From a bacterium (GTDB taxonomy: Bacteria; Sysuimicrobiota; Sysuimicrobiia; Sysuimicrobiales; Humicultoraceae): a stretch of DNA of 64,000 bases. This document shows, piece after piece, positions 9,284-32,156 of the stretch. Location: assembly GCA_050695215.1 (NCBI GenBank), contig JBOGSD010000004.1, positions 1,864-65,863 on the forward strand, in the 5' to 3' direction. The translations under genes and the position numbers were made by a program. Below the pieces are notes generated by a model that saw only the letters and a list, made by a program, of their open reading frames with translations, did not search any database and had not been told where the DNA came from. Every line of letters begins with the position of its first letter. The first letter of the stretch is position 1.

Positions 9284-10794
9284 GCCGCCCGTCCCGCCAT
9301 CATCAGGCCGATCTGTTCGCGGTCTGCCTCCGCGGCCTCGACGGTCCCGACGATCCGGCCCTCGAACAGCACCGCGATCCGGTCGCTGAGGGTGAGCACT
9401 TCTTCCAGGTCTTCGGAGACGAGCAGCACCCCGGCGCCCTCCGCGCGGCGCTGCAGCAACAGCGTCTGAATCTGCTCCGTCGCGGAGACGTCCAGGCCGA
9501 AGGTGGGGTGGGCGGCCACGATCAACCCGGGAGCGCCGGAGAGCTCTCGGGCCAGGATCAGCCGCTGGATGTTGCCGCCGGAGAGGTGGCGGGCCTGCGC
9601 GTGAGGGCCGGGAGTGGCGATCTCGTACTCGGCGATCATCCGCTCGGCGAACCGCGTGACCGCCGGAGCGTCGAGGAACGGCCCTCGGGAGAAGGGGGGG
9701 TAGCGGTACCGGTTCAGCACCAGGTTCTCCCCCACGGACATCCCGGGGACGATCCCCATGCGCACCCGCTCTTCGGGGATGTGCGCCACGCCGGCCTCGT
9801 GGACGGCGCGGGCCGAACGATTCGTCACGTCTCGGCCCAGGACGCGCACCCGTCCTGCGGAGGCGGGGCGAAGGCCGGTGGCGACCTCCACCAGTTCCCG
9901 CTGCCCGTTACCGGCCACTCCGGCGATCCCCAGGATTTCGCCGCGGCGCACGATAAACGACACGCCTTGGAGCGCGTCCCGCCCGCGGTCGCCGCGCGCC
10001 CAGAGACCGTCGGCGGCCAGGGCCTCCGCCTCGCCAGGACTCCCGGTCTTGGTGCGGCGCAGCCCGATGTCCCGGCCGACCATCATCCGCGCCAGGCTGC
10101 GGACCTCGGCCTGGGCGATCGGCACGGTATCGACGACCTGCCCCCGGCGCAGCACCGTCACCCGATCGGCCACTTCCATGACCTCGTCGAGCTTATGGGT
10201 GATGAAGATGACGGCGTGCCCTTCCTCCTTCATCCGCCGCAGGACGGCGAAGAGCCCCCTCGCCTCCTGGGGGGTGAGGACACTGGTGGGTTCGTCGAGG
10301 ACCAGGATCTGCGCGCCGCGCAGCAGCGCCTTCAGAATCTCCACCCGCTGCTGCTCACTGACCGACAGCTCCCAGACGTGTGCCTGAGGATCGACGACCA
10401 GCCCGTAGCGTTCGGCCAGTGCGGTGATCCGCGGGGCCACCTGGCGCGCCGGAAAGAGGGCGCCGGCCCCGGGCAGGCCCAGGGCGACATTCTCGGCGAC
10501 GGTGTGGCGCCGCACCAGGAGGAAGTGCTGCGGCACCATGCCGATGCCTTGCGCGATGGCGTCGCGGGGAGCGCGGACATGTACGGGGCGGCCGCGCACC
10601 AGGATCTCTCCGCCATCGGGCTGGTAGATCCCGTAGAGGATGTTCATCAGCGTGGTCTTGCCGGCGCCGTTTTCCCCGAGCAGCGCGTGGACCTCGCCTG
10701 CGCGCACCTCCAGGGAGACGCGGTCGTTGGCGACCACCCCGGGGAAGGCTTTTGTGATGCTCCGCAGGGTCAGGAATGCAGAGGGGGCGCTCAT
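9280..10794 (-). CDS. ABC transporter ATP-binding protein with two fused ATPase domains (nucleoside/sugar type)
   Basis: Two Walker A / ABC signature sets (GENGAGKTTLMN, LSVSEQQRVEI; second domain IAGVAGNGQREL, LSGGNIQRLILAREL). Confidence 0.9.
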   Translation of the reverse strand: MSAPSAFLTLRSITKAFPGVVANDRVSLEVRAGEVHALLGENGAGKTTLMNILYGIYQPDGGEILVRGRPVHVRAPRDAIAQGIGMVPQHFLLVRRHTVAENVALGLPGAGALFPARQVAPRITALAERYGLVVDPQAHVWELSVSEQQRVEILKALLRGAQILVLDEPTSVLTPQEARGLFAVLRRMKEEGHAVIFITHKLDEVMEVADRVTVLRRGQVVDTVPIAQAEVRSLARMMVGRDIGLRRTKTGSPGEAEALAADGLWARGDRGRDALQGVSFIVRRGEILGIAGVAGNGQRELVEVATGLRPASAGRVRVLGRDVTNRSARAVHEAGVAHIPEERVRMGIVPGMSVGENLVLNRYRYPPFSRGPFLDAPAVTRFAERMIAEYEIATPGPHAQARHLSGGNIQRLILARELSGAPGLIVAAHPTFGLDVSATEQIQTLLLQRRAEGAGVLLVSEDLEEVLTLSDRIAVLFEGRIVGTVEAAEADREQIGLMMAGRAA

Positions 10795-16826: not shown

Positions 16827-18020
16827 GTGAACTGCATCTACTGCGACCAGATCCTCAGCGCCGACCCGGGCTACGCGCCCCGGTCTGCCGAGTTTGACCT
16901 CGGCTCGGAGGCGCCGCGCTGCGCCTGGCACTGGCGTTACGTTTGCGATCACTGCGGTGAGCCGGGCCACTTCATGGCGCGCTTCTACTGTCCTACCTCG
17001 GGCCGGCTCCTCTGCCGTGAGACCGGGGCCGTGGAATTTCAGGACGGCGCCTTCTGGGCCTGGCAGTACTGGTGGACGCTGACCTGTCCGGAGTGTGGGC
17101 AACGTCACCACGCGTTGGATCGGGCTGAGTTCGAAGGCCGCCACCCCTGGCAGATCGATCCTCACGCCGGCCAGGCGCGGCGCTGGCTTTCCTCAGACCC
17201 GTACCTGTCGCGCTATCCACCCGCCCGGCTGGACCGCGTCCCGCTCGACGCGGTGACCGACGCGGACGTCGGCGCCAGCTGGAGCGCCAACGCCGCGACC
17301 TGGCTCGCCGGATACGACGAGCGCGGCGACCACACGCGCAAGTATCAGAGCGACCCGGTGCTCCTCGACGTCCTGGGAGAAGTGCGCGGGCTGCACATCC
17401 TCGATGCGGGCAGCGGGGGCGGGTACCTCTCCCGCCTGCTGGCCAGACGAGGGGCACACATGGTTGGCGTTGAAAACGCCCGTGCCATGCACGAGGCGGC
17501 GCTGGCAGAGTATAGTCGAGAGCCGCTGGGAATCGAGTTCCACCACGCCTCCATCTCGGCGATGCCTTTTCTCGATGACGCCTCATTCGATGCCGCGGTC
17601 GCCAACTTCGTGCTGATGGACGTGCGGGACTACGAGGGGGCCATCGCCGAGATCGCGCGCGTGCTGCGGCCTCGGGGTCTCTTCGTTGCCGTCATCTCCC
17701 CTTCGTCTTTTGAAGCCCGTTGGCACACTCCGGCCCCGGACTCACCGCGGCGCGAGGACCGCGCCGGGTGGATAGACGACGATTACTTTATCCGGCGCGC
17801 CGGCTACTCACAGTGGGGCGACCTCAAGCCCTTGCTCACGTTTCACCGTCCGCTGCGCGACTACATCGCCGCCTGCAAACGTTCCGGCCTGCAACTGCGC
17901 GATCTGGAAGAACCGGAGATGTCAGACGAAGCCAAGCGGGAGTGGCCCGCCGCGGTGATCCGCCATCATGCCCGCGTCTCGTGGGCCTACGTGCTCAAGT
18001 TTGTGAAGGTGGATCTGTAA
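16827..18020 (+). CDS. Class I SAM-dependent methyltransferase (Methyltransf_11-like) with an N-terminal Cys-rich zinc-ribbon domain
   Basis: GTG start. N-terminal ~100 aa contains CIYCDQ, CAWHW, CDHCGEPGH, YCPTSGRLLC and CPECGQRHH. C-terminal ILDAGSGGGYLSRLLARRG...LRPRGLFVAVI is a Rossmann SAM-binding motif I / post-I. Confidence 0.8.
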   Translation: MNCIYCDQILSADPGYAPRSAEFDLGSEAPRCAWHWRYVCDHCGEPGHFMARFYCPTSGRLLCRETGAVEFQDGAFWAWQYWWTLTCPECGQRHHALDRAEFEGRHPWQIDPHAGQARRWLSSDPYLSRYPPARLDRVPLDAVTDADVGASWSANAATWLAGYDERGDHTRKYQSDPVLLDVLGEVRGLHILDAGSGGGYLSRLLARRGAHMVGVENARAMHEAALAEYSREPLGIEFHHASISAMPFLDDASFDAAVANFVLMDVRDYEGAIAEIARVLRPRGLFVAVISPSSFEARWHTPAPDSPRREDRAGWIDDDYFIRRAGYSQWGDLKPLLTFHRPLRDYIAACKRSGLQLRDLEEPEMSDEAKREWPAAVIRHHARVSWAYVLKFVKVDL

Positions 18021-21000
18021 TGGAACCATCGGGGATCAAAGCCGCGGGCACTTTCGTCGGGCGGGGGCAGGAACTCGAGGCCCTGCTGGATGGGCTGACC
18101 GACGCCTTCGCCGGGCGGGGGCGCCTTTTCCTCGTCAGCGGCGAACCCGGGATCGGCAAGAGTCGCCTGGCGGACGAATTCGCCGCCCGCGCGCGGGAGC
18201 GCGGCGCTGTCGTTCTTTGGGGACGCTGTTGGGAGGCAGGCGGCGCGCCTGCCTTCTGGCCCTGGGTCCAGTCGATCCGCGCCTATCTGCGCCACCAATC
18301 CCGGGACGTCATCCGGGAGCAATTGGCAGCGGGCGCCGCCGACCTGGCGCAGATGCTGCCCGAGCTGCGGATGCTTCTGCCGGACGTCGTCGCGCCGCCA
18401 TCTGTGGATCCCGACGGGGCCCGGTTCCGCCTCTTCGACGCGACCACGACCTTTTTCCGGAACGCGGCAGCGCAGCAATCGCTGGTTCTCGTCCTCGACG
18501 ACCTCCACGCCGCGGATGCGTCCTCGCTGCTACTGCTGCGTTTCGTCGCGCGCGAGCTGGCAGAGATCCCTCTGCTCATTGTCGGGGCCTATCGGGACCT
18601 GGAGGTCGGTCCCGATCATCCACTCAGCGAAACCCTCTCCCAGCTGATGCGGGAACAGGCCACGCGCCTGCTGCCCTTGACCGGACTGTCCCGCCCCGAA
18701 GCGGCGCGACTTATCGAGATCGCCGCCGGAGCGACGCCACCCGAGGCGCTGGTGGCGGCCCTGCATGCGCAGACGGACGGCAATCCTCTGTTCATGGGGG
18801 AGGTCGTCCGGTTCCTGGCCCACGAGGGCCGGCTGCCCGACGAGCCGTCTCCCGGCCTGGTTCGACTGGCCATTCCCCAGGAAGTACGCGACGTGATCGG
18901 CCGTCGGATCGCCCAACTGTCCGAGGAGTGCGGGTCGCTTCTGACGCTGGCGTCGGTGCTGGGCAGGGAGTTCCATCTCGAAGCGCTCAAGAGGATCAGC
19001 GCCCTGCGCACCGACGAGATGCTGGCCCTCCTCGACCAGGCCTCCGCCGCGCGGCTTGTGGTCGACATCCCTGGGGCGGTGGGCCGCCTCCGTTTCGCGC
19101 ACGCCCTCATGCGTGAATCCTTGTATGAGTCCATCCCACGGGCGCGGCGCGTCACGCTCCACCGGCAGGCCGGCGAAGTGCTGGAATCCCTCTACGCCCC
19201 CGAACTCGAGCCGCACCTCGCCGAACTGGCCCACCACTTTCTCGAAGCCGCCCCCGGCGGCGCTACCGACGCGGCCCTGACCTACGCGCGCCGGGCGGCA
19301 GAGCGGGCCACCAGCCTGCTGGCATATGAGGAGGCTGTCCGCCTCTATCAGATGGCCATCCAGATCCTCGACGCGCCCGGGGCGGGGGACCAGCGCAGCC
19401 GGTGCGACCTGCTCCTGGCGTTGGGTGACGCCCAGATGCGTACCGGCGACACTCCCACGGCGCAGGAGACATTCTTGCAAGCCGCGGCCCTCGCGCGGGA
19501 AGCGAGCTTGCCCGAATACCTGGCCCGAGCGGCCCTCGGCTACGGCGGCAGGTTTGTGTGGGAACGGGGGGACCGCCGCCTGCCTCCCCTCTTGGAGGAC
19601 GCGCTCGCTCATCTGCCCGGGGTGGACAGCGTGCTGCGGGCGCGGTTGCTGGCGCGGCTGGCCGGAGGCCCACTGAGGCACGAACCGTCGGGAGAACGCA
19701 GGGCGGCGCTCAGTCTCCAGGCCCTCGAGATGGCCCGCCGTCTGGGGGATGCGGCCACACTCGCCTACGCCTTGGAATGCCGGGCCATCGCCATCTGGTC
19801 GCCGCGCAACCCGCACGAACGGCGCACCCTCGGGGCTGAATTGATTCGCGTGGCCGGCCCGGCGGGAGACAAGGAACGCGAGTTTCAGGGCCATTCCATC
19901 CGGTACGCCACGCTGTTGGAGTTGGGCGACATGCCTGGGGTTCATGCCGAGCAGGCGGCCATGGAACGATTGGCCGATGAGTTGCGCCAGCCGTCACATC
20001 AATGGTTCGCGGCGGTCAAATCGGCGGGCCTGGCGCTCCTGGCGGGGAGGCTGGATGAAGCGGAACGGCGCATCGAGCGGGCCCTGGCCCTGGGGGAGCG
20101 TGGGGGACAGCGTTTTGCGGTCCCCGCCTTCCGCCTCCAGACGTACATGCTGCGTCAGCAGCAGGGACGGCTGGCGGAGATCGAGGAGGCGGTCAGGCGA
20201 TCGGTAGACGAGTACCCCAGCTTTACCATCTGGCGGTCCGTCCTCGCCCACCTTCAGGCGGAACTGGGCCGGCGGGCGAGTGCGCGGCAGGCCTTCGAAC
20301 AGGTGGCGGGCGATAATTTCGGCTCATTTCCGGAAGACGAGGTCTGGTCCTTGAGCCTGAGCTTTCTGGCCGAGGTAGCGGCGTTTCTCGGTGACAGAGA
20401 GCGGGCCGCGACACTCTATCAGCTCCTCCTGCCGTATGCCGCGCAAAACACACTCAGCGCACCGGAGGGCAGCACGGGGTCGATCTCGCGGCCCCTGGGC
20501 ATCCTGGCCTCGACGCTGCAGCGATGGGATGAAGCGGCCGGCCATTTCCAGGAGGCGCTTCAGATGAACGAACATATCGGCGCTCCCTCCTGGATGGCTC
20601 GTACGCAATACGATTACGCCCGCATGCTCCTGGCCCGCGATGGACCGGAAGACCGTGGCAGGGCCGCCGACCTTCTCACCCTCGCAGGGGCGACCTCCTC
20701 GGAGCTGGACCTGCATGCTCTCAGCAACCGGATCTCCCCAATCCTGGAGCAGCTGAGGGGGGTCGCGGCCCGCCCTTCGGCCCCGGCGCAAGACGCTGCG
20801 GTGATCTCGGGCGAGTTCCGGCGGGAAGGCGAATACTGGTCGATCAGTTACGGCACCGAGAGTTTCAGGCTGAAAGACTCAAAGGGGCTCCGATACATCG
20901 CCCGGCTCCTGGGCGAACCGGGCCGTGAGTTCCACTCGCTCGACCTCGTTGCCGCAGAGGCTCAACAAGAAGCCCTTCCTGCCCGATCGCCCGGGGAGCG

Positions 21001-21400
21001 GTTGGACGCACTCGGGCTGCACGCCGGGCTCGGGGACGCAGGGGCCCTCCTGGATCCCCAGGCCAAAGCCGCCTACCGGCGCCGGCTGGACGAACTGGAA
21101 GACGATCTGCAGGAGGCGGAGGCGTGGAACGACCCTGAACGAGCAGCACGAATTCGTGAGGAGAAAGGCTTCCTGGCACGCGAACTCGCCGCGGCCGTGG
21201 GGATCGGCGGACGGGACCGCCGGGCAGCGTCGGCCTCCGAGCGGGCTCGCGTCAGTGTCACCCGGGCTATCAAAGGCGCCCTGTTGCGGATTGGAGAGCA
21301 AAGCCCCGGGCTCGGCCGCGATCTGGCGTCGACCGTCAAGACAGGCACCTATTGTTCCTATCGTCCGGATCCCCGGCTGCCTATCGCCTGGCGTCTCTGA
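18020..21400 (+). CDS. Large P-loop NTPase (AAA_16/STAND-like N-terminal ATPase followed by ~900 aa of helical/TPR-like repeats)
   Basis: ATG at 18020 overlaps the methyltransferase stop (TAATG). FVGRGQELEALLDGL...GRLFLVSGEPGIGKSRLADEF...LVLVLDDLHAADASS is a Walker A/B AAA_16-type module. The rest is Ala/Leu/Arg-rich helical repeats. No canonical LuxR HTH is recognisable at the C-terminus. Confidence 0.8.
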   Translation: MEPSGIKAAGTFVGRGQELEALLDGLTDAFAGRGRLFLVSGEPGIGKSRLADEFAARARERGAVVLWGRCWEAGGAPAFWPWVQSIRAYLRHQSRDVIREQLAAGAADLAQMLPELRMLLPDVVAPPSVDPDGARFRLFDATTTFFRNAAAQQSLVLVLDDLHAADASSLLLLRFVARELAEIPLLIVGAYRDLEVGPDHPLSETLSQLMREQATRLLPLTGLSRPEAARLIEIAAGATPPEALVAALHAQTDGNPLFMGEVVRFLAHEGRLPDEPSPGLVRLAIPQEVRDVIGRRIAQLSEECGSLLTLASVLGREFHLEALKRISALRTDEMLALLDQASAARLVVDIPGAVGRLRFAHALMRESLYESIPRARRVTLHRQAGEVLESLYAPELEPHLAELAHHFLEAAPGGATDAALTYARRAAERATSLLAYEEAVRLYQMAIQILDAPGAGDQRSRCDLLLALGDAQMRTGDTPTAQETFLQAAALAREASLPEYLARAALGYGGRFVWERGDRRLPPLLEDALAHLPGVDSVLRARLLARLAGGPLRHEPSGERRAALSLQALEMARRLGDAATLAYALECRAIAIWSPRNPHERRTLGAELIRVAGPAGDKEREFQGHSIRYATLLELGDMPGVHAEQAAMERLADELRQPSHQWFAAVKSAGLALLAGRLDEAERRIERALALGERGGQRFAVPAFRLQTYMLRQQQGRLAEIEEAVRRSVDEYPSFTIWRSVLAHLQAELGRRASARQAFEQVAGDNFGSFPEDEVWSLSLSFLAEVAAFLGDRERAATLYQLLLPYAAQNTLSAPEGSTGSISRPLGILASTLQRWDEAAGHFQEALQMNEHIGAPSWMARTQYDYARMLLARDGPEDRGRAADLLTLAGATSSELDLHALSNRISPILEQLRGVAARPSAPAQDAAVISGEFRREGEYWSISYGTESFRLKDSKGLRYIARLLGEPGREFHSLDLVAAEAQQEALPARSPGERLDALGLHAGLGDAGALLDPQAKAAYRRRLDELEDDLQEAEAWNDPERAARIREEKGFLARELAAAVGIGGRDRRAASASERARVSVTRAIKGALLRIGEQSPGLGRDLASTVKTGTYCSYRPDPRLPIAWRL

Positions 21401-22586: not shown

Positions 22587-23525
22587 TCAGGCGACGATGC
22601 GGGTCCCGGTCTCCCCGGCCAGGGCCCGCTCGATCTTCTCGGGAGAGGTAATCAGCACTTCCTTTCCGCCGGCCTGGAGGTAGTCGATCGCCGCCTCGAT
22701 CTTGGGGCCCATACTGCCGGGCGGGAACTGCCCCTCGGCCAGGTAGCGCCGGGCCTCGGCGAGGGTCACGCGCTCCAGGGCGCGCTCGTCCGGTTTCCTA
22801 TAGTTGAGGGCCACCCGCTCTACCGCCGTGGAGATGAGCAGGAGGTCGGCACGGATCGTGCGGGCCAGCAAGCTGCTGGCGTGATCTTTGTCGATCACCG
22901 CCTCGACGCCGCGCAGAGCGCCGTCTTCGCGGACGACCGGGACGCCCCCGCCGCCCACGCCGACGACGACGAAGCCCGCGGCCAGCAAGGTCGTGATGGC
23001 GTCCGTCTCCAGAATCTCCAGCGGCCGCGGCGAGGGTACCACCCGCCGCCACCCGCGTCCGGCGTCTTCAACCACGCTCCAACCGCGCTCGCCGCGGTAG
23101 CGATCCGCCTGTTCCTGGGTGTAGAAGGGGCCGATCGGTTTGGTCGGTTTCTGAAAGGCCGGATCCTCGCGGTCCACCACCACGCGGGTGACCACGGCGG
23201 CGGTGCGCCGGCGCACGTTCAACCGCGCCATCGCCGCGTCGAGGGCGACCTGGGCCATGTATCCGATCGCCCCCTGCGTATCGGCCCCGCAGAGGTCCAG
23301 GGGCACCGTGTGCAGGACGTGGCTGGCCAGTTCGGAACGCAGCAGGATGAACCCGACCTGCGGGCCGTTCCCGTGGGTGATGACGACGTCCCAGCCGCCC
23401 GCCACCATCGCCGCGATGTGTACGCACGTCTCGGTGATGGCCTCCCATTGGTCCGGAACGGATTGATGCTGCGGACTCTTGATCAGCGAGTTCCCGCCGA
23501 TGGCGACGACCGCGAGACGGGCCAT
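22587..23525 (-). CDS. arcC: Carbamate kinase
   Basis: 312 aa starting MARLAVVAIGGNSL...VITHGNGPQVG, with a ...GGGGVPVV... region: canonical carbamate kinase. Confidence 0.9.
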   Translation of the reverse strand: MARLAVVAIGGNSLIKSPQHQSVPDQWEAITETCVHIAAMVAGGWDVVITHGNGPQVGFILLRSELASHVLHTVPLDLCGADTQGAIGYMAQVALDAAMARLNVRRRTAAVVTRVVVDREDPAFQKPTKPIGPFYTQEQADRYRGERGWSVVEDAGRGWRRVVPSPRPLEILETDAITTLLAAGFVVVGVGGGGVPVVREDGALRGVEAVIDKDHASSLLARTIRADLLLISTAVERVALNYRKPDERALERVTLAEARRYLAEGQFPPGSMGPKIEAAIDYLQAGGKEVLITSPEKIERALAGETGTRIVA

Positions 23526-23544: not shown

Positions 23545-24969
23545 TCAGGCTGTCATCTCCACGCCGGCGCGGCCACGACCCCCGCTGAGTCCCCAGGAGA
23601 CGACCGCCACCGCGAGTGCGACGAGTGCCATCCCCCCGAAGCCGGCGGCCACGGCGTTCATAGTGGCGGCGGTCCCCAACAGAACCCCAGCCACTGAGGC
23701 GCCCAGAACACCGCCCACGTAGCGGCTCGTCAGGTAGGCGCCCGCCGCCATCCCGGTGGAGCTGTCCGGCACACTCTCGACCGCCGCGGTCTGGCGCGAC
23801 GGGCCACTCAGCCCGAACCCCACGCCGATGAGGCCAAGCAGGAAGCCTACCTGCCAGATGGTCGCGTCACCGGCCCACCACCATAGGGCTGCCAGACCCG
23901 CGGCCATACACAGGCTCCCCGTGACGGCGGGAGCCCTCCGTCCTAGCCGGTCGGAGAGACGACCACCTAGTGGCGCGATCAAGGCGCTCAGTCCCGAGAT
24001 GGCGAGCAGCGCCGTGCCGCTCGCCGTCGGGGAGGCACCCATCAACGTCTGGGTGAGAATTGGAATCAGGATCAACGTCGCGTGCAAAATCACAGTAGCC
24101 CCGAGGACCGCGGTGACGGCAGACGCAAAGGGGCGCCGACGAAAGAGCCGGAGGTCGATCGCCGGTTCGGCTGTGCGCAACTCGTGCCTGACGAACCAGC
24201 CGAGGAACACCGGAAAGGCGGCCGCGCCCCACCATCGCCACCCATTCTGGCTGCGCAGACCCGAGATCGCACCGACCAATACCAGCACAGAGGTCGAGAG
24301 CAAGATCAGACCGGTGAGGTCGAGGGGGCGTGTTGTGACGTTGCGTGCACCCCGCGGCACGACCGCGCTGACCAGAAGGATGGCCACCAGCGCCAGGGGG
24401 ATCGCCACGCCGAAGAGGGATCGCCATCCGAAGCCGGCGACCAGCACGCCCCCGACGAACGGCCCCACTGCCGCGCTCGTGGAGATCAGCATGTCGAACA
24501 GACCAAAACTGCCGCCGCGGCGATCGGCCGGGCTGAGCCGGCGCACCAGGGAGAGCGCGTTGGCGCTGATCGAGGCTCCGGTAGCCGCCTGCAACACCCG
24601 TGCCACGACCAGCACGGGAAAGGACCAGGCCAGCGCGGCGACCAGCGAGGTGAGAGCGAAAGCCCCCACGCCCAGCAAAAACATGCGGCGGTGTCCAAAC
24701 CGGTCTCCCAGCGTGCCGCTCGCCGGCAGCGCGAGGGCTACCGTCGCCAGATAGAGCGTGACAAGCCAGGAGACGGTTCCTGCCCCGACGCCGAGCTCGC
24801 GCATGATGCTCGGTAGCGCAACCGCGAGCATCGTCGAGTTGAGCGGAATGAGAATCGACCCCGATGCCACGCCTAGCAGCGCGATCCCCCAGGCGCGCGG
24901 GGGTTCTGCCGCGGAGACCGCCGCCCCGATCCGTACGGCCTCAACGCCTACCGCATCGGGGCGGATCAC
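23545..24969 (-). CDS. MFS transporter, DHA2 (EmrB/QacA-like, 14-TMS) drug:H+ antiporter family
   Basis: GTG start at 24967-24969 overlaps the stop of the upstream PEP-utilizer gene (GTGA). The first TM segment begins GIALLGVASGSILIPLNSTMLAVALPSIMRELG, typical of DHA2. The ORF-track extension upstream of the GTG is Arg-rich. Confidence 0.8.
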   Translation of the reverse strand: MIRPDAVGVEAVRIGAAVSAAEPPRAWGIALLGVASGSILIPLNSTMLAVALPSIMRELGVGAGTVSWLVTLYLATVALALPASGTLGDRFGHRRMFLLGVGAFALTSLVAALAWSFPVLVVARVLQAATGASISANALSLVRRLSPADRRGGSFGLFDMLISTSAAVGPFVGGVLVAGFGWRSLFGVAIPLALVAILLVSAVVPRGARNVTTRPLDLTGLILLSTSVLVLVGAISGLRSQNGWRWWGAAAFPVFLGWFVRHELRTAEPAIDLRLFRRRPFASAVTAVLGATVILHATLILIPILTQTLMGASPTASGTALLAISGLSALIAPLGGRLSDRLGRRAPAVTGSLCMAAGLAALWWWAGDATIWQVGFLLGLIGVGFGLSGPSRQTAAVESVPDSSTGMAAGAYLTSRYVGGVLGASVAGVLLGTAATMNAVAAGFGGMALVALAVAVVSWGLSGGRGRAGVEMTA

Positions 24970-26534
24970 AGCAGCCTGACCTCTCCGGCCGTCCCGTCTA
25001 CCTCCACCATCTGGCCGTCGGCGATGACGCGCGTGGCGATTCCCGTGCCTACGACCGCCGGTAACCCATACTCGCGGGCCACGACGGCGCAATGGGAGAG
25101 TACTCCCCCGGTGTCGGTCACGATGGCCGAGGCGACGTCGAAGAGCGTGACCCATGACGCGTTGGTCGTCGTGCAGACCAGCACATCTCCTGGACGAATC
25201 CGGCCAGCCATCTCCAGATGGGTGACCACGCGCGCTGGGCCGCTCCTCACGCCAGGGGAGGCGGCCAGCCCCCGGATCACGCCGGCGGTAGTCTGCGCCT
25301 GAGGCGCTCCAAAGAAGCGTCGCTGGTACCGTAAGACCTGGTCTGCCCTCCCGGCTCCGTCAGACGGCGGGGCGCCCAGCCGCGCCGGCGGATCCAGCGT
25401 CTGCCACCGCGCGAACTCCGCCCTCCGGGCTGCGGCCTGCTGGCGGAGGTCGGTCGGGGCGCGCAGCGCAGCGGTCACCTGGTTGAGTGTCAGGAAGAAG
25501 ATGTCGTCCTCGTGCTCGATCACATCGCGGCGGACGAGCCTAGCGCCGACTGCCAGGGCGAGCCGTCGCCTTCGCCACAGGACACTTCGGTCGATGTGGA
25601 AGTGGTGGTCTTCACTGAGGATCACACCGACCCGGGCCTGGTCGTGAAGCTGGTCGAATCTTCGCCGAGCCTCCTCAGCCAACTGGGAGCGGGCCTCCGC
25701 CAGGGCGACCTCGCGGTCGCGAGCCTGTCGGGCCCTTCGTTCGCGGGTGTCTTCCTGGCGCCCGGCCCGCTCCACGATCTCCGCGAAGAGGCGATGGGGG
25801 GCATCAACCCACGAGGCGCCGAAGGCGTCGCCCTGGTCTGCGCCGAGGACGCCGTATGCCGCGAGAAAGGCCCGGAGGCGGGACGCAAGCGGACCAGAAC
25901 TGGATAGATCCTCCAGGGTACGGGCGTGCCGGAGAAGGGGCAGCAGTCCCTCGGCCGCCACGAACCGGGCCAGGTCGTCGAGGGCGCCCGCGGCCTCGGT
26001 GGTCCTGTTGCCGTAGCCTTGAAGGAGGCGCGCGGCCTCGAGGTCGGTGGCTCCGGGGAAGAGTTCTGCAAAGTGATCGAGGAAGAGGTTGATCGCCATG
26101 TAGGCCGGTGTCACAAGGAAGTGCAGCTCCCAGATGCGGGCCATGCGGTCCAGCGCCCAGCCGAGGTGGTCCAGGAGGGCCGCCTCGTCTGCAGCGTCGG
26201 CGTCGAAGGCGTCCATCGCGGCGTAGATCCTCAAGATCTCAGGAAGATACTGGTCCTCCCAATCCCGTCCAAGGGTGGCCGCCGCCTCCACTTCGTTCAG
26301 CCGCGCGGCGGCGGGGGCGTCTACGGGTTCCTGGGCGCCGTAGGAGAAACCGTTGACGTATTGGGTAAGGTGCCGAAAAGGCCGGCCGAAGGCGGCATGC
26401 GCCCGATTCGCCCCTTCTGTGGGCAGCATCCCGAGATCCTGGCCAAGCGGCGGGACGGGCCGAGGGTTGTGCACTCTCCCTAGCGACCAGGCCAGGGCGG
26501 CGCGCGTCACTTCCCAGGTAACCTCGCCGCTCAT
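24966..26534 (-). CDS. PEP-utilizer mobile (phosphohistidine swivel) domain protein, paralog A; rifampin-phosphotransferase-like but lacking an ATP-grasp domain
   Basis: C-terminal ~95 aa ...PGDVLVCTTTNASWVTLFDVASAIVTDTGGVLSHCAVVAREYGLPAVVGTG... matches the PEP-utilizers domain with the catalytic His. N-terminal ~430 aa are helical and carry no PPDK_N/ATP-grasp motifs. Its ATG overlaps the stop of paralog B. Confidence 0.8.
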   Translation of the reverse strand: MSGEVTWEVTRAALAWSLGRVHNPRPVPPLGQDLGMLPTEGANRAHAAFGRPFRHLTQYVNGFSYGAQEPVDAPAAARLNEVEAAATLGRDWEDQYLPEILRIYAAMDAFDADAADEAALLDHLGWALDRMARIWELHFLVTPAYMAINLFLDHFAELFPGATDLEAARLLQGYGNRTTEAAGALDDLARFVAAEGLLPLLRHARTLEDLSSSGPLASRLRAFLAAYGVLGADQGDAFGASWVDAPHRLFAEIVERAGRQEDTRERRARQARDREVALAEARSQLAEEARRRFDQLHDQARVGVILSEDHHFHIDRSVLWRRRRLALAVGARLVRRDVIEHEDDIFFLTLNQVTAALRAPTDLRQQAAARRAEFARWQTLDPPARLGAPPSDGAGRADQVLRYQRRFFGAPQAQTTAGVIRGLAASPGVRSGPARVVTHLEMAGRIRPGDVLVCTTTNASWVTLFDVASAIVTDTGGVLSHCAVVAREYGLPAVVGTGIATRVIADGQMVEVDGTAGEVRLL

Positions 26535-28138
26535 TGCAGCATCCGGACCATTCCGGCCGTTCCATCTACTTCGACCAGTTGTCCATCGCGCAGCCGCCGG
26601 GTCGCTTCACCCGTCCCCACCACCGCCGGCACGCCGAACTCACGCGCCACCACGGCAGCATGTGAGAGGGCGCCCCCCGTATTAGTGATCAGCCCGGCGA
26701 TGATGCCGAAGAGCGGCACCCAGGAGGGATTGGAGGAGGGACACACGAGGACGTCCCCGGCGCCCACCTGCTCGAAGTCGTCCGCCGACAGAGCGACGCG
26801 AACCCGACCCCGCACCACGCCTGGAGAGGCCCCGATGCCGCGGAGGACCTTCTCATCCACCTGTTCGTGGGGTGGCGGCTCGAAGCGGTTGGGCTGGAGG
26901 GGCGCCTCCGGCGGCCGGCCGAGATAGCGGGGGGGACGCACCTCCCTCCAGCGCTGGTGTTCGGCCCGGCGCTGGGCGATGAGCGGCCTGAGGTTCTCCC
27001 GGTTCTGCAGCGCCGCGGAAATCTCGTCCGCGTGCAGGAAGAACACATGGGCCGGAGCAGCCAGGGCGCCCGCTTCGACGAGCCGCCGGCCGATCCGCAC
27101 GGCGAAGCGATGGAGGTGCGCCTGGAGCATCCGATCGAGCCAGTAGTTGTGTCCCTCCGTCAGCGGTCCCACGTCGAGCGCCAGAGCGAGGCTCTCTTCA
27201 AACCGCTTCAGGTCGTCGGGACGGTCGCGCAGCCGTTCCCGCGCCTGAGCGGCCAAGGTTTCCGCCCGGGCCCGCTGCTGTTGCCGGAGGAGTTCGGGGT
27301 CCTCCCCGCGGGCCGCCAGCCGCTTGTGCACTTCACCGAGCACCAGCGTGGGATCGTCCGCCCAGGACGGGTAGGTGAGGTCATCGAAGGGCTGTCCGAG
27401 GTGGCCGTGCGCATCGAGGAAACTGCGCAACGCCTCTAGGAACTCGGCCCCTCCCTCCGTCTCCGGCATCGCGACCAGGGCGGCGGCGGGATCCCGCCTG
27501 ATTCGGTCGGCGACCGCGGGCAACGCCCGCGCCTTCTCCGCCAGCATGAACAGATCGCGCTGCGTCCGTTGCAGATCGTTGGGCAACCCCTGCACGAGCG
27601 AGAAGGCCTCGCCGGGATGTGCGCCCTCGACGAAAGACTCATAGAGGTCGGCCAGCTCGTTGACAGCCTGGTAGGATCCGGCGTTCGTCATGAAGTGTAG
27701 GCCCCAGAGCCACCGGGCCCGGGTCCACACCTCCTCCCACAGCGCGGCGACTGCGCGCGGTGGATCGCTCTCGATCGGCGCCGCGTGCATCCACGCGTAG
27801 GTCTGCTGCAAGGCCGGAAAGACCTTCTGGTCCCAGTAGCCTCGGACGGCCCGCGCCTGGGCGCGGCGGCTCGCCTGGGCCTGCTCGCGGACGCGTGGCA
27901 TCTCGCTCGCGGGGACGAGGATCTGCTCGGCGAAGAAGGCGTACCCATTGAAGATCCGGCAATGGAAGCGGATGGGAACGCCAAAGCGCTCGAATCGGTA
28001 GGTGATTCCGTGCGAAATGATGCGCGAGTAGTCTCCCGCCAGGGGGGTGAGGATCCCCGGGGTGTGCATGTCGTCCCACTCCCAGGAGAGGTCGGGGTCG
28101 GACGGGTCTTCCCAGGTGACGGGGAATTCGTCGGTCAT
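26531..28138 (-). CDS. PEP-utilizer mobile (phosphohistidine swivel) domain protein, paralog B
   Basis: C-terminus ...AGDVLVCPSSNPSWVPLFGIIAGLITNTGGALSHAAVVAREFGVPAVVGTG... Same architecture as paralog A and clearly paralogous along its whole length. Trp-rich N-terminus (VTWEDPSDPDLSWEWDD). Confidence 0.8.
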   Translation of the reverse strand: MTDEFPVTWEDPSDPDLSWEWDDMHTPGILTPLAGDYSRIISHGITYRFERFGVPIRFHCRIFNGYAFFAEQILVPASEMPRVREQAQASRRAQARAVRGYWDQKVFPALQQTYAWMHAAPIESDPPRAVAALWEEVWTRARWLWGLHFMTNAGSYQAVNELADLYESFVEGAHPGEAFSLVQGLPNDLQRTQRDLFMLAEKARALPAVADRIRRDPAAALVAMPETEGGAEFLEALRSFLDAHGHLGQPFDDLTYPSWADDPTLVLGEVHKRLAARGEDPELLRQQQRARAETLAAQARERLRDRPDDLKRFEESLALALDVGPLTEGHNYWLDRMLQAHLHRFAVRIGRRLVEAGALAAPAHVFFLHADEISAALQNRENLRPLIAQRRAEHQRWREVRPPRYLGRPPEAPLQPNRFEPPPHEQVDEKVLRGIGASPGVVRGRVRVALSADDFEQVGAGDVLVCPSSNPSWVPLFGIIAGLITNTGGALSHAAVVAREFGVPAVVGTGEATRRLRDGQLVEVDGTAGMVRMLQ

Positions 28139-28298
28139 CGCGATCGCAGGTCTCTTCTCGTTCTACGCGGTCCGTGCGCACCCCTCTGCCGGTCCACCTC
28201 TGGGGGCGCGAGGGGCTCCACCGCCAGCAGAATGACGGCAGTCATATGACTTCGTGGCAACGTCGTGACCCCGGATCCTAGACCGCCCACCCGCCGCC

Positions 28299-28346
28299 CG
28301 GTAGGCTCATCCTCGAAGGTAACCGGTAGGCTCATCCTCGGAGGTG
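28299..28346 (+). repeat. Tandem direct repeat of CCGGTAGGCTCATCCTCGRAGGT (23 nt x2, 2-nt spacer), second copy overlapping the RBS of the ABC ATPase gene
   Basis: Copies at 28299-28321 and 28324-28346 differ at a single position (A/G). GGAGGTGA within copy 2 lies 4 nt before the GTG at 28351. Confidence 0.8.
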
Positions 28347-28350
28347 AGAT

Positions 28351-29262
28351 GTGGACGCGATTGTGAACGTGCGGAACCTCCGGAAGCGGTACGGAGAGGT
28401 CGAAGCGGTCCGCGACGTCTCCTTCGCCGTTCTGCCCGGTGAGATCTTCGGCATTCTGGGCCCTAACGGCGCCGGGAAGACGACCACGCTGGAAATCATC
28501 GAAGGGTTGCGCCGCGCCGACGGCGGCGAGGCTCACGTCGCCGGCATCGACGTCCGGCGTGATCCCCAGGCCGTGAAGGCGGTCATCGGCGTGCAGCTGC
28601 AGGAGGCCGGCTTCTTCGACCGGCTCACCGTGGAGGAAACGATCAACCTCTTCGGGGCCTTTCACCGCCGCGCGCTGGGGGCCGGACCGCTGATGGCAAC
28701 CCTGGAGTTGACCGAGAAGCGCCGCGCCCGCGTCGAGACCCTCTCCGGCGGCCAGCGGCAGCGGCTCAGCCTGGCCCTCGCGCTGGTCAACGACCCCCGG
28801 GTCCTCTTCCTCGACGAGCCCACGACCGGCCTCGACCCACAGGCCCGCCGCCACCTCTGGTCCACCATCGAGCAGATCAAGGCCGACGGCCGGACCATCG
28901 TCATGACCACGCACTACATGGAGGAAGCCCAGCGGCTCTGCGACCGCGTCGCCGTCCTCGACCACGGCCGCATCTTGGCCCTGGGCACCCCCCAGGATCT
29001 GATCCAGCAGCACTCCGGGCTGTCGGCCGTGGCCCTGGCGCTGGAATCCGCGGACGCCGACCTGCGCGGCATCACCGGCGTGGAGGAGGTCAGCCAGAGC
29101 AACGGCGACCTCCGGCTGCACACTCGCGATCCGCTGGGAACGCTGCACGCCGTCGTCGAGATGCGGCGCACCGGCCAGCTGCGGTATCGCAGCCTGCGGC
29201 TGGAAGAGCCGACGCTGGAGGACGTTTTCCTCACGTTGACCGGAAGGAGCCTGCGCGAATGA
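28351..29262 (+). CDS. ABC transporter ATP-binding protein (DrrA-like, ABC-2 exporter family)
   Basis: GTG start. VRNLRKRYGEVEAVRDVSF...GILGPNGAGKTTT...LSGGQRQRLSLALAL...LFLDEPTTGLDP. Confidence 0.9.
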   Translation: MDAIVNVRNLRKRYGEVEAVRDVSFAVLPGEIFGILGPNGAGKTTTLEIIEGLRRADGGEAHVAGIDVRRDPQAVKAVIGVQLQEAGFFDRLTVEETINLFGAFHRRALGAGPLMATLELTEKRRARVETLSGGQRQRLSLALALVNDPRVLFLDEPTTGLDPQARRHLWSTIEQIKADGRTIVMTTHYMEEAQRLCDRVAVLDHGRILALGTPQDLIQQHSGLSAVALALESADADLRGITGVEEVSQSNGDLRLHTRDPLGTLHAVVEMRRTGQLRYRSLRLEEPTLEDVFLTLTGRSLRE

Positions 29263-30317
29263 GAGCGTTTGTCGCTATGCTCAACACGTCCATCAAGAAC
29301 TTCGTGCGCAACCGCGGGGCGGTCTTCTTTGGAATCGCGTTCCCGCTGATCCTGATGGGACTGATCGGCCTGGCCTTCGGCGGGGGCGACAACATCCAGT
29401 TCACCGTCTCCTTCGTGGACGAGGGCAACGCGCAGGTCGGCGGCCCTCTGCTGGCCGGGCTGCGCGAGGTGCCGGTCCTCCGGATCGTCGAGGAGACCCG
29501 CGCCTCGGCGCTCGCCCAGCTGAGGAAGGGGAACCGCTCGCTGGTCATCGTCGTCCCCGCGCAGGGCACGGCGCTGGAGGCCTTCTATGACAGCAGCCAG
29601 GAACAGAGCAGCCGGACCGCATTGATGATCCTGGAGCGGTTCGTCGCCGAAGCCAACCTGCGCATCAGCGGCACGCCCGCCGTGCTGGCGGTGACCTCCA
29701 CGCCGATCGCCGGTGAGAACGTGCGCTTCTTCGACTTTCTCCTCCCCGGCATTCTGGCGATGACCATCGCCCAGACGGGACTCCTCGGCGTCGCCCCGGC
29801 CGTCGCGGAGATGCGTGAGCGTCTGCTGCTCAAGCGCGTGATGGCCACCCCCGTGTCCCCGCTGGCCTTTCTGGGCGGACTGCTCGGACGGAGCACGCTG
29901 GTCCAGCTGCTGCAGGGCGCGATCATCCTGGCCATGGGCGTCCTGGTGTTCGGCGCCCGCGTCCACGGGAGTCTGATCCAATTGGCCGCGCTGGCCATCT
30001 TCGGGGCGGTGGCGTTCTTCGGCATCGGCTTCGCCGTCTCGACCTTGTCGCGCACCGCGGAGACGGCCAATCTCTTCGGCAGCGTCATCTTCTTCCCGAT
30101 GATGTTCCTGGCGGGCACGTTCTGGCCGCGGGAATTCATGCCCGAGACGATCCGTCCGCTGATCGCCTACTTGCCGCTGAGCCCGTTGGTGGACGCCATG
30201 CGGGGGGTCTCCGCGCTCGCCCAGCCGGTTGGACAGTTCGGATGGTCGATGCTCTATCTGCTGGGGTGGGCGGTTGCCGCCTTCGCCGTCGCCGTGCGCC
30301 GCTTCCGCTGGGAGTAG
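29259..30317 (+). CDS. ABC-2 type transporter permease
   Basis: 6-TM hydrophobic protein. Its ATG overlaps the ATPase stop (ATGA). Confidence 0.85.
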   Translation: MRAFVAMLNTSIKNFVRNRGAVFFGIAFPLILMGLIGLAFGGGDNIQFTVSFVDEGNAQVGGPLLAGLREVPVLRIVEETRASALAQLRKGNRSLVIVVPAQGTALEAFYDSSQEQSSRTALMILERFVAEANLRISGTPAVLAVTSTPIAGENVRFFDFLLPGILAMTIAQTGLLGVAPAVAEMRERLLLKRVMATPVSPLAFLGGLLGRSTLVQLLQGAIILAMGVLVFGARVHGSLIQLAALAIFGAVAFFGIGFAVSTLSRTAETANLFGSVIFFPMMFLAGTFWPREFMPETIRPLIAYLPLSPLVDAMRGVSALAQPVGQFGWSMLYLLGWAVAAFAVAVRRFRWE

Positions 30318-31487
30318 ATGAGCCGGCAGGTGAAGATCGGGCTGGCGATCGCCCGGTACGGGCTCTTCCTCTTCGTCTTTCTGACGCAGGCGCTGGAACC
30401 GCCTCGCCTCTCGGGGCTCCGGCTCGCGGCGCTGGCGGCGCTCTACCTGGCCTTGACGACGACCGGCTACCTGTTCACGCGGGGCCGCGCGCGCCCGGCG
30501 CTGCTGGTGGGCCTCGAGGTCGCGCTGGTTGTCGCGATCGGCCTGCTCGCGCCCCGGGGATCGTTCTGGCTGGCCTACTTCGTCGTCACCGTCGACGCCG
30601 GCTTCGCCCTCGGGACCCCGCCCCGCGTGTACGCCTCCGCCGGAGCCATCTACCTGTTGCTCGCCGCCAACGCCTACTTGGCCTGGGGTCCCCTCGATCG
30701 CGAGGTCGTCGAGTCCCTGCTCGCGCTGCTGTTTGGGTTCGTCTTCATGGTCACCGCCACGCGACTGGCGATGGAGCAGATGGCCGCGCGCCAGCAGAGC
30801 GAGCGCCTGCTGCGGCAACTGGAAGAAGCGCACGACCGGCTGCAGACGTATGCGGCGGAGGTCGAGACGCTCTCGGTCGCGCGGGAGCGGCAGCGCGTCG
30901 CGCAAGAGGTGCACGATGCGGTGGCGCACGTGCTGACCGGGCTCCTGGTGCAGCTGCAGGCCGCGCGCCGGACGCTGCCCATCGACCCCGCGGGCGCCTC
31001 GGCCCGCCTGGCGTCTCTTGAGGAGGTCGCCCGGGGGGGCCTGGATGACGTCCGCCGCGCCGTCCGGGCGATGCGCCCTGAGCACCTGGAGACCGTCGGT
31101 GGATTAGAGGCGATGCGCCGCCTCTGCGCCCAGTTCGCCGAGCGAACGGCCACCCGCGTGACCTTTGCCGCTGAAAAAGAGCCGGCCCTCACCCCGGCTC
31201 AGGAGGTGCTGCTCTATCGTGTGTTGCAAGAGTGCTTGACCAACGCGGCGCGCCACGGTCGGGCCTCGAACGTGTGGGCCGCGCTGCGTCCTCAGAATGG
31301 CCGTGTGGAACTGCGCGTGCGCGACGACGGCACGGGCGCGGCTGAGGTGGCGCCCGGGATGGGCCTGACCGGGATGGCCGAGCGGGCGGCGGCGGCCGGC
31401 GGGCGATTCTCCTACCGCACCTCCGCCGGCGGCGGATTCGAGGCGGTGTTGGACCTGCCCCTCGACGCCGCGGCCGTCCCAACCTAA
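30318..31487 (+). CDS. Sensor histidine kinase (HisKA_3 + HATPase_c; NarL/LiaS/DesK-type) with N-terminal TM domain
   Basis: H-box ...RERQRVAQEVHDAVAHVLTGLLVQLQAARR and an ATPase region. Several N-terminal TM helices. It starts 1 nt after the permease stop. Confidence 0.85.
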   Translation: MSRQVKIGLAIARYGLFLFVFLTQALEPPRLSGLRLAALAALYLALTTTGYLFTRGRARPALLVGLEVALVVAIGLLAPRGSFWLAYFVVTVDAGFALGTPPRVYASAGAIYLLLAANAYLAWGPLDREVVESLLALLFGFVFMVTATRLAMEQMAARQQSERLLRQLEEAHDRLQTYAAEVETLSVARERQRVAQEVHDAVAHVLTGLLVQLQAARRTLPIDPAGASARLASLEEVARGGLDDVRRAVRAMRPEHLETVGGLEAMRRLCAQFAERTATRVTFAAEKEPALTPAQEVLLYRVLQECLTNAARHGRASNVWAALRPQNGRVELRVRDDGTGAAEVAPGMGLTGMAERAAAAGGRFSYRTSAGGGFEAVLDLPLDAAAVPT

Positions 31488-31496
31488 TCGCGGCCG

Positions 31497-32156
31497 ATGC
31501 CGGGAAAGATTCGCATCCTGCTCTGTGACGACCAGCGGTTGTTCCGCGAGGGGCTGCGCACGCTCATCGAGACCGAGGCCGACTTCGAGGTGATCGGAGA
31601 GGCCGCCGACGGTGAGGCGGCGGTCGAGCTGTGCGCGCGGCTCCGACCCGACCTCGCCCTCCTCGACATCCGCATGCCGCGCATGGATGGCGTCGAAGCG
31701 ACCCGCCGCATCTGCGCCGGGGGCGGACCCCAGGTGGTCATTCTCTCGACGTATGACGACGACGAGTTCATTTTCGAGGCCCTCAAAGCGGGCGCGGCCG
31801 GATACCTGCTGAAGGACTTCCCTGCGGAAGAACTGATCAAGGCCCTGCGCACCGTCCATCACGCCGGGGGCATCCTCATCCCTCCGCCGATCGCGGCGAA
31901 GCTCGTGGGGGAACTTCGCCGCGGCCAACCCGCCGGCACCGAGGCGCCCTCCCTGGCGGAGCCGCTGACCCAGCGAGAGGAGGAGGTTCTTCGCCTGCTC
32001 GCCCGAGGCCGGTCGAACAAGGAGATCGCCGAGCAGTTGTTCCTGACCGAGGGCACCGTCAAGAACTACATCAGCCGGATCTACGCGAAGCTGGGTGCCC
32101 GCGACCGCACCCAGGCCGCCCTCTGGGCGGTGCAGCACGGACTGCTCAAGGAGTAG
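31497..32156 (+). CDS. Response regulator, NarL/FixJ (LuxR-type HTH) family
   Basis: REC domain (ILLCDDQRLFREGLRTL...LLDIRMPRMDG) plus LuxR HTH (LTQREEEVLRLLARGRSNKEIAEQLFLTEGTVKNYISRIYAKLG). Confidence 0.9.
   Translation: MPGKIRILLCDDQRLFREGLRTLIETEADFEVIGEAADGEAAVELCARLRPDLALLDIRMPRMDGVEATRRICAGGGPQVVILSTYDDDEFIFEALKAGAAGYLLKDFPAEELIKALRTVHHAGGILIPPPIAAKLVGELRRGQPAGTEAPSLAEPLTQREEEVLRLLARGRSNKEIAEQLFLTEGTVKNYISRIYAKLGARDRTQAALWAVQHGLLKE

Follow-up and report, generated by a model that had tools for sequence, protein, structure and literature searches.

Acceptor and swivel components of a predicted split RPH-like dikinase in an MFS-coupled operon without a linked ATP-grasp gene

Background

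From where would a phosphohistidine protein obtain its phosphoryl group when no ATP-binding partner is encoded beside it, and what would it do next to a transporter? Both questions are raised by a locus in a 64,000-nt stretch (hereafter the window) of contig JBOGSD010000004.1 from a bacterium of the Sysuimicrobiota (assembly GCA_050695215.1). On the minus strand of the window, two adjacent genes, here called A and B, encode paralogous proteins that end in a phosphoenolpyruvate (PEP)-utilizers phosphohistidine domain, the swivel domain, and they are followed by a gene for a transporter of the major facilitator superfamily (MFS). A preliminary description, made from the sequence alone, took the three genes for a modify-and-export resistance or self-immunity unit, built from a split phosphotransferase with the domain order of rifampin phosphotransferase (RPH) minus its N-terminal ATP-grasp domain. 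Here, we examine this description by domain, structure and genome comparisons.

Results

A and B resemble RPH without its ATP-grasp domain

To judge from their sequences and structure models, A and B are the swivel/acceptor halves of an RPH-like split dikinase. The two proteins can be aligned over their full length (34% identity, E=1e-68), and in a Pfam scan the sole match in each was PF00391 at the C-terminus (residues 460-529 of A, 85.9 bits; residues 447-517 of B, 81 bits). As the preliminary description had supposed, both therefore end in a PEP-utilizers domain. PF01326 was absent from A and B in the same scan, and the ATP-grasp hidden Markov model (HMM) described below matched neither of them. 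In precomputed annotation, PF27448 'Rph_4th' was assigned to both. AlphaFold2 (AF2) models were obtained with a pLDDT of 91 and a pTM of 0.89 for A, and of 90 and 0.89 for B. In Foldseek searches, RPH-Lm (5fbt/5hv1) was the only full-length match for A and B (TMq 0.74-0.75), whereas pyruvate phosphate dikinase (PPDK), PEP synthase, pyruvate kinase and Enzyme I covered only the swivel domain of about 120 residues. RPH-Lm also came first when the family profile was compared with the PDB (E=6e-59), residues 191-534 of A falling onto residues 525-866 of RPH. Furthermore, in NCBIfam searches the alignments of A and B fell on the C-terminal half of RPH, RedH, PigC and the PRK08296 families. These domain and fold matches indicate that A and B each consist of an acceptor domain like the rifampin-binding domain of RPH and a phosphohistidine swivel, and the proposed domain order, RPH minus the ATP-grasp, was thus confirmed. 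An ATP-grasp domain hidden in the N-terminal regions was ruled out by Pfam, the AF2 models and Foldseek.

The residues expected of a phospho-carrier are in place. The swivel motif quoted in the preliminary description is present in both proteins (TGGALSHAAVVAREFGVPAVVG in A, TGGVLSHCAVVAREYGLPAVVG in B), and so is the T/S-x-x-G-G-x-x-x-H phospho-carrier motif (TNTGGALSH in A, TDTGGVLSH in B) with its invariant His; all invariant residues of the family are retained in A and B. By conservation, the top motif of the family is L-T/S-E-x-H-N-Y-W-L/I-D-R, which is aligned with Y665-R676 of RPH. The second phosphotransfer of RPH-Lm requires both Arg666 and Glu667 (PMC4844700). Glu328 of A is the equivalent of the essential Glu667, while Thr327 stands in place of the essential Arg666.

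Relatives of A and B belong to a cassette with an ATP-grasp component and an MFS gene

Relatives were collected from one genome per species. At least 517 were confirmed, and the best 79 loci were kept, of which 65 were labelled as Chloroflexota lineages, mostly metagenome-assembled genomes. Sixty-eight loci had at least 900 bp of upstream sequence, and in 56 of them a PPDK_N ATP-grasp was encoded directly upstream of the swivel module or fused to it. When partial loci at contig ends were included, the adjacent grasp was a separate gene, 14-118 nt upstream, in 36 cases and a stop-free fusion in 25. The upstream gene is a genuine PPDK_N (252 bits) and matches RPH's ATP-grasp domain (5hv6, E=9e-40). 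The phosphoryl source, which the preliminary description had called unexplained, is thus readily seen in the relatives, although the lineage of the window has no linked copy.

The link to the transporter was likewise found to extend beyond the window, with an orthologous MFS gene directly adjacent in 62 of the 68 loci that had enough downstream sequence (46 co-directional, 16 convergent). When conserved neighbours were surveyed across 82 loci, only the clusters of swivel (with fused grasp) and MFS proteins recurred widely; other large clusters turned out to be antisense artefacts of open reading frame (ORF) listing or generic signalling proteins. From this survey, it can be concluded that an ATP-grasp, at least one swivel module and an MFS transporter make up the conserved unit.

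The usual order of the cassette is ATP-grasp gene, one to four swivel modules and MFS gene. For example, locus L084 (5703-13029) contains a grasp gene, three A-type swivel genes and the MFS gene, and in locus L004 (4098-11599) one grasp gene is followed by three modules of the B type and a single one of the A type. The frequent position of one grasp before two to four swivel modules suggests that a single ATP-loading domain can serve several acceptor modules. We know of no description of such a one-loader/many-acceptor design for this enzyme class. In six or seven loci (L034, L038, L044, L053, L056 and L064 among them), the modules are joined into a single ORF of about 1,330 aa in the order grasp, acceptor-swivel, acceptor-swivel. 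These triple fusions (L034:9077-13228, L044:2232-6884 and L038:7742-11596) are stop-free and have no linker between the modules, and Pfam recognized PPDK_N and two PEP-utilizers stretches in them. Swivel-swivel fusions also occurred in the protein collection (proteins P0028 and P0045). The first and second modules of the fusions form separate sister clades, indicative of an old duplication that was retained. To our knowledge, the grasp-swivel-swivel architecture in a single ORF has not been described.

Around the L084 cassette lie genes for a Vgb-like lyase, an NpmA-like 16S rRNA methyltransferase and a nitroreductase, which give its surroundings the look of a resistance-type neighbourhood. 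As a separate observation, an apparent frameshift at about residue 238 breaks the swivel gene of one grasp-less locus (L072:10001-11606) in two, which could reflect a pseudogene or an assembly error.

No ATP-grasp gene is linked to A and B, and both genes are under purifying selection

In agreement with the preliminary description, no ATP-grasp gene was found in the window. A tblastn search of the 64 kb with the grasp domains of fused relatives gave no match (best E 0.7), and neither did a grasp-only HMM of 55 sequences, run with filters off, at E<=10. This HMM was built from the domain segments only, excluding the remainder of the fused grasp-swivel ORFs, and in other loci it did detect grasp domains of the PEP-synthase type at 27% identity. 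In addition, no grasp remnant was detected in the 212-bp region upstream of A.

In comparison with the orthologous locus L082, dN/dS (the ratio of nonsynonymous to synonymous substitution rates) was 0.15 for A, 0.22 for B and 0.115 for each of the MFS gene and the carbamate kinase gene that follows it, at dS values of 0.6-1.1 for the four genes (about 0.9-1.1 for A and B). These low values indicate that all four genes are under purifying selection. B evolves faster, its product sharing 66% amino-acid identity with the L082 copy versus 77-87% for its neighbours. The possibility that A and B are parts of a single frameshifted gene was ruled out, since both are complete modules with their own starts and the orthologues keep the same boundaries; together with the dN/dS values, this upholds the earlier view that they are not fragments.

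Most likely, the linked ATP-grasp gene was lost in this lineage, and A and B would be charged in trans by a grasp protein encoded elsewhere. Stand-alone PPDK_N proteins of the cassette clade are numerous (3,682 matches at E<=1e-20 in a protein search). One such gene, in L092 (8001-8948), is 59% identical to the L087 grasp and has as neighbours a gene for a TehB-like methyltransferase on one side and genes for a GAF-HisKA_3 kinase and a LuxR-type regulator on the other; neither a swivel gene nor a remnant was found near it, the reverse of the situation of A and B in the window. L092 comes from a different organism (GC content 62% versus 69%), and this orphan gene shows only that grasp and swivel components can be encoded apart. 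Charging in trans is made plausible by this orphan together with the scattered occurrence of grasp-less loci and the absence of a substitute kinase from their flanks.

Place of A and B among their relatives

In a neighbour-joining tree of 88 modules, A grouped with its grasp-less orthologues of L082 and L003 (77-78% identity), with the three tandem copies of L084 as sister group and the fourth copy of L004 nearby; both L084 and L004 are grasp-linked. B grouped with the B copy of L082 inside a deep B-type clade, which is marked by the motifs SHC...AREYG and [IL][ST]EDH and most members of which are grasp-linked. Closer relatives of A occur in the order grasp-A-MFS (L087, 62% identity, and L089) and as A-MFS without a grasp (L088, 59%). 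The grasp-less loci are dispersed over the tree and do not form one clade, and their flanks contain unrelated housekeeping genes, for peptidases of the M16 and S41 types, a SIS protein, a STAND-LuxR regulator and a deaminase among others, and no substitute kinase.

As for the orthologous loci, the window and L082/L083 share the order of ATP-binding cassette (ABC) and two-component system genes, A, B, MFS and carbamate kinase. The same order without B was found in L003. L086 comprises A, MFS and carbamate kinase, again without B, on a contig that starts 130 bp upstream of A, leaving the upstream neighbours out of view. Conservation of the gene pair, expected from the preliminary description, was therefore observed in L082/L083 and not in L003 and L086. 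This indicates that B is accessory and not essential to the unit, and no support was obtained for an obligate pairing of A and B in a phosphorelay or heterodimer, which had been suggested earlier as an alternative. In L003, the ABC operon and A are set apart by an inserted alpha/beta-hydrolase gene of lower GC content (8731-9540), which neither the window nor L082 contains. This insertion accounts for a gap of 1.4 kb upstream of A in that locus, and a grasp gene was ruled out there.

Organization of the operon and its surroundings

A, B and the MFS gene were confirmed as three co-directional minus-strand ORFs with overlapping ends: A and B share ATGA (..CAATGAGC..), and B and the MFS gene share GTGA (..CTGTGATC..). 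An ORF of 536 aa listed from 25155 is the longest possible ORF only; the Logan gene call and the homologues take the start that overlaps in GTGA. The unit had been described as one of three genes, and a fourth was overlooked: the operon is composed of four tightly packed genes in the order A, B, MFS and carbamate kinase (Table 1), the start of the last lying 19 nt past the MFS stop behind a strong ribosome-binding site, GAAGGAGGAGG.

Table 1. Positions of the operon genes, their domains and motifs, and adjacent features in the window
Feature	Position	Strand	Description
Gene A	26531-28138	-	535 aa; A-type acceptor-binding and phosphohistidine-swivel component, RPH-like dikinase (predicted); PF27448 Rph_4th and PF00391
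A residues 1-410	26909-28138	-	Mostly helical acceptor domain, like the rifampin-binding domain (AF2 secondary structure, Foldseek to 5fbt)
A residues 425-535	26534-26866	-	PEP-utilizers swivel domain; PF00391
A acceptor-site motif LTEGHNYWLDR, aa 326-336	27131-27163	-	Aligned with RPH-Lm Y665-R676; conserved across 88 modules
Codon of predicted phospho-carrier His493, A (GGALSH)	26660-26662	-	Invariant alignment column; aligned with the region of RPH-Lm catalytic His825
Gene B	24966-26534	-	522 aa; B-type paralogue, two-domain architecture as in A
B acceptor-site motif LSEDHHFHIDR, aa 306-316	25587-25619	-	Glu and His retained; N-Y-W replaced by H-F-H
Codon of predicted phospho-carrier His481, B (GGVLSHC)	25092-25094	-	Invariant alignment column
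MFS transporter gene	23545-24969	-	474 aa; GTG start overlapping the B stop codon; DHA2/EmrB-like
Carbamate kinase gene	22587-23525	-	312 aa; final operon gene; TIGR00746
Divergent intergenic region	28139-28350	.	Between A and the ABC operon
Divergent neighbours	28351-32156	+	DrrA-type ABC ATPase, ABC-2 permease, HisKA_3 kinase, LuxR-type response regulator; context only

The MFS protein was recognized by PF07690 (184 bits), and its closest curated relatives are all drug exporters. A crude hydropathy count gave 11 strong segments and some weaker ones, and 14 transmembrane segments are plausible. The carbamate kinase exceeds the cutoffs of TIGR00746 (384 bits versus 358) and PRK12352 (405 bits versus 266). 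No arcA, arcB or arcD was found near its gene, whose position is conserved only in the orthologous loci L003, L082 and L086.

Upstream, 212 bp separate A from a divergently transcribed gene set. About 52 nt directly before the start of A (approximately 28139-28192) are near-identical in the window, L082 and L003, even though coding dS is about 0.9, and this stretch may represent an operator or a leader. An Rfam search of the conserved leader gave no match (no riboswitch or known RNA), and a promoter and terminator scan was uninformative. In the window only, a 23-nt direct repeat, CCGGTAGGCTCATCCTCG[A/G]AGGT, is present in two copies at 28298-28345 with 25-nt spacing. The divergent ABC, HisKA_3 and LuxR genes, which might be co-regulated with the A operon, stay syntenic in L003 and L082. 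L008 contains a comparable set 5-8 kb upstream of its cassette.

On the other side of the operon, a large protein with AAA_16 and tetratricopeptide repeat (TPR) domains is encoded at 17720-21400 on the plus strand. Its residues 110-572 match the TOMM kinase/cyclase fusion model TIGR03903, well below the cutoff. In the orthologous loci, MalT/BTAD-type regulators are found in place of this gene.

Discussion

Proposed mechanism and competing explanations

The reading that we favour, and consider probable on balance, is that an ATP-grasp protein encoded elsewhere charges A and B, that these phosphorylate a small molecule, and that the MFS transporter moves it, the whole acting as a modify-and-export unit. 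From the homology to RPH and to the two-component dikinase HpeHI (see below), we infer dikinase chemistry for A and B. The partner acting in trans, the transport direction and the type of substrate are inferred as well. According to this model, the PPDK_N protein supplied in trans would bind ATP, and the swivel His (His493 in A, His481 in B) would attack the beta-phosphate, the gamma-phosphate being hydrolysed, to give phospho-His, AMP and Pi. The swivel would then turn back to its own helical domain, where the L-T/S-E-x-H site, with the Glu that corresponds to RPH Glu667, would position the phospho-His for phosphorylation of a hydroxyl group on a small molecule held in that domain. Finally, the translationally coupled DHA2-like transporter would move the compound, or what is made from it, through the membrane, with export as the most likely direction. 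The substrates of A and B are probably different, giving the unit two specificities. Such a unit may plausibly act in resistance.

Several observations weigh against this reading. The ATP-grasp gene is absent through 26 kb on one side of the operon and 36 kb on the other, and B is absent from two of the four orthologous loci. Every score of A and B against curated NCBIfam families is far under cutoff. The Arg666 that is essential in RPH gives way to Thr or Ser throughout the family, which indicates that the acceptor-site chemistry differs from that of RPH, the only solved relative. The best NCBIfam match of the transporter, DHA2/EmrB TIGR00711, scores 193 bits, under the cutoff of 230, and it is only from this sub-cutoff similarity to DHA2 exporters that the export direction derives. 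Finally, no member of the clade is characterised.

The same biochemistry might also serve the opposite role, in which a phenolic or otherwise hydroxylated compound is scavenged, entering via the MFS transporter or by diffusion and being trapped by phosphorylation. All characterised two-component dikinases start the catabolism of hydroxy-aromatic compounds, trapping of the substrate by phosphorylation was proposed by the authors who described HpeHI (PMC12167813), and the tight one-to-one pairing of transporter and kinase resembles group translocation. However, no conserved carboxylase, phosphatase or other catabolic gene is found beside the cassette, the kin of the transporter among curated families are drug exporters throughout, and some neighbourhoods, such as that of L084, resemble resistance islands. 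We therefore regard uptake and trapping as possible but rather unlikely. If, on the other hand, A and B worked without any ATP-grasp, they would be ATP-independent phosphotransferases, or a relay or heterodimer of two histidines, passing phosphate from a phosphorylated metabolite to an acceptor. HpeH alone is able to move phosphate from 4-phosphoacetophenone to acetovanillone (PMC12167813), the 64 kb contain no grasp gene, the grasp-less arrangement is under purifying selection in four orthologous loci, and swivel-swivel fusions exist in nature. These fusions, however, always carry an ATP-grasp domain too; A and B both have near relatives with a linked grasp, L003 and L086 do without B, and no donor-binding domain is visible, so that we consider this explanation improbable. 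Only a slim chance can be given to its extended form, according to which the linked grasp was lost for good and A, B and the transporter became a grasp-independent, group-translocation-like 'transport and phosphorylate' unit, with a relay or heterodimer fed by a phosphorylated metabolite, conceivably carbamoyl phosphate.

The remaining explanations concern the carbamate kinase, gene decay and the rifamycins. The carbamate kinase might supply the phosphoryl group, via carbamoyl phosphate or directly, in replacement of the lost ATP-grasp: its gene, the last of the operon, is preceded by a strong ribosome-binding site and occurs in each of the four grasp-less orthologous loci, with no arc genes nearby. 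Nevertheless, the link is limited to one narrow syntenic clade and other grasp-less loci have no carbamate kinase, the protein passes the ordinary carbamate kinase equivalog cutoff, and we know of no case in which carbamoyl phosphate charges a PEP-utilizers histidine, all of which leaves this the most improbable of the explanations considered. As a general substitute for the grasp, a carbamate or other kinase was also rejected, such genes being absent from the neighbours of other grasp-less loci. A and B could instead be what is left of a cassette in decay after the loss of its ATP-grasp; the linked grasp gene is indeed missing, and B is both the most divergent of the neighbouring genes and missing from two orthologous loci. 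Against decay stand the intact ORFs, the dN/dS values of A and B at a dS near 1 (about 0.9-1.1), and the conservation of the invariant catalytic residues, the translational coupling and the leader sequence, which make it very improbable. The same low standing is given to the view that A and B are true phosphotransferases of rifamycins, a label that family members carry in some JGI annotations. RPH-Lm is the best match in both sequence and fold, and some relatives are named 'rifampicin phosphotransferase', but 172 bits versus an equivalog cutoff of 999, about 20% identity, a non-conserved Arg666 and the missing ATP-grasp domain all argue against it.

Returning to the favoured modify-and-export reading, the locus of the window is an orphan pair of one A-type and one B-type component, with the linked grasp lost and a carbamate kinase gained as the last operon gene. 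Such an orphan pair offers a natural test of module charging in trans. The cassette itself is frequent among Chloroflexota from soil and among related uncultured phyla, with thousands of proteins in metagenome collections, and current database labels vary between 'PEP-utilizing enzyme', 'pyruvate, water dikinase' and 'rifampicin phosphotransferase'. If it inactivates and exports an antibiotic or xenobiotic, it would constitute a widespread, unrecognised resistance determinant that is mislabelled in resistome surveys; if it traps a nutrient, it would represent a new uptake strategy.

Comparison with known systems

The split of the dikinase, which the preliminary description had called unusual, is already known. 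The same division has been characterised in the two-component dikinases PpsAB, CreHI, AcvAB and HpeHI and in the orf9/orf10 pair for 3-hydroxypyridine, the substrates being phenol for PpsAB, 4-cresol for CreHI and hydroxyphenylethanones for AcvAB and HpeHI, while orf9/orf10 is essential for the conversion of 3-hydroxypyridine (PMC12167813, PMC12624787, bioRxiv 10.1101/2020.01.08.898148). Their hosts are Thauera (PpsAB), Corynebacterium (CreHI), Sphingobium (AcvAB), Rhodococcus (HpeHI) and Ensifer (orf9/orf10). HpeH was modelled as the swivel and rifampicin-binding domains of RPH, and HpeI is the ATP-grasp protein (PMC12167813). What is new is a large MFS-coupled clade, mostly of Chloroflexota, with module arrays and triple fusions.

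A and B are like HpeH, AcvA, CreH and PpsA in combining an acceptor domain with a C-terminal His swivel while the ATP-grasp is not in the same chain, and in most of their relatives the grasp gene lies immediately upstream; in the characterised two-component dikinases, the partner gene is adjacent. They also share with PpsA and CreH the Ser before the catalytic His, the regulatory Thr of PEP synthase being absent. However, they differ from these systems in several respects. With 522-535 aa versus approximately 610-640, they are about 100 residues shorter. HpeH, CreH and PpsA are about 45% identical to one another, and A and B score 140-170 bits against the PRK08296 families, whose cutoffs are 578-730; these sub-cutoff scores indicate that A and B form a distinct clade. 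Their cassette is coupled to an MFS gene and not to carboxylase or phosphatase genes of catabolism, module arrays and fusions occur among their relatives, and the locus of the window is without a linked grasp.

With RPH, A and B share the swivel His motif and the equivalent of Glu667, and about one third of the related loci encode fusions in the RPH order. They differ from it by the missing ATP-grasp, an identity of about 20% and the change of Arg666 to Thr or Ser, and the RPH equivalogs are far from reached (NF041857, 172 bits for A and 144 for B versus 999; NF000283, 129 and 90 versus 1700). PigC, RedH and HapC have C-terminal halves homologous to A and B (NF052632 and NF052631, E=1e-33 to 1e-42), but they are single-chain proteins with an N-terminal ATP-grasp in pigment gene clusters, a context that is not found in the window. 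PTS Enzyme I, of the phosphotransferase system, is able to phosphorylate rifampicin, which is relevant here as evolutionary background only (PMC13099321). The homology of A and B to PEP synthase, PPDK and PTS Enzyme I is confined to the swivel domain of about 100-120 residues, and unlike PEP synthase and PPDK they have neither the PEP/pyruvate-binding TIM-barrel nor the N-terminal ATP-grasp. MarK was ruled out as a relative, as it belongs to the unrelated UPF0261 family. As for gene organization, the mph(A)-mrx-mphR operon also places a gene for an MFS-like membrane protein directly after a phosphotransferase gene; its kinase has an unrelated fold of the APH type, and the likeness to the A/B operon is thus one of gene organization only.

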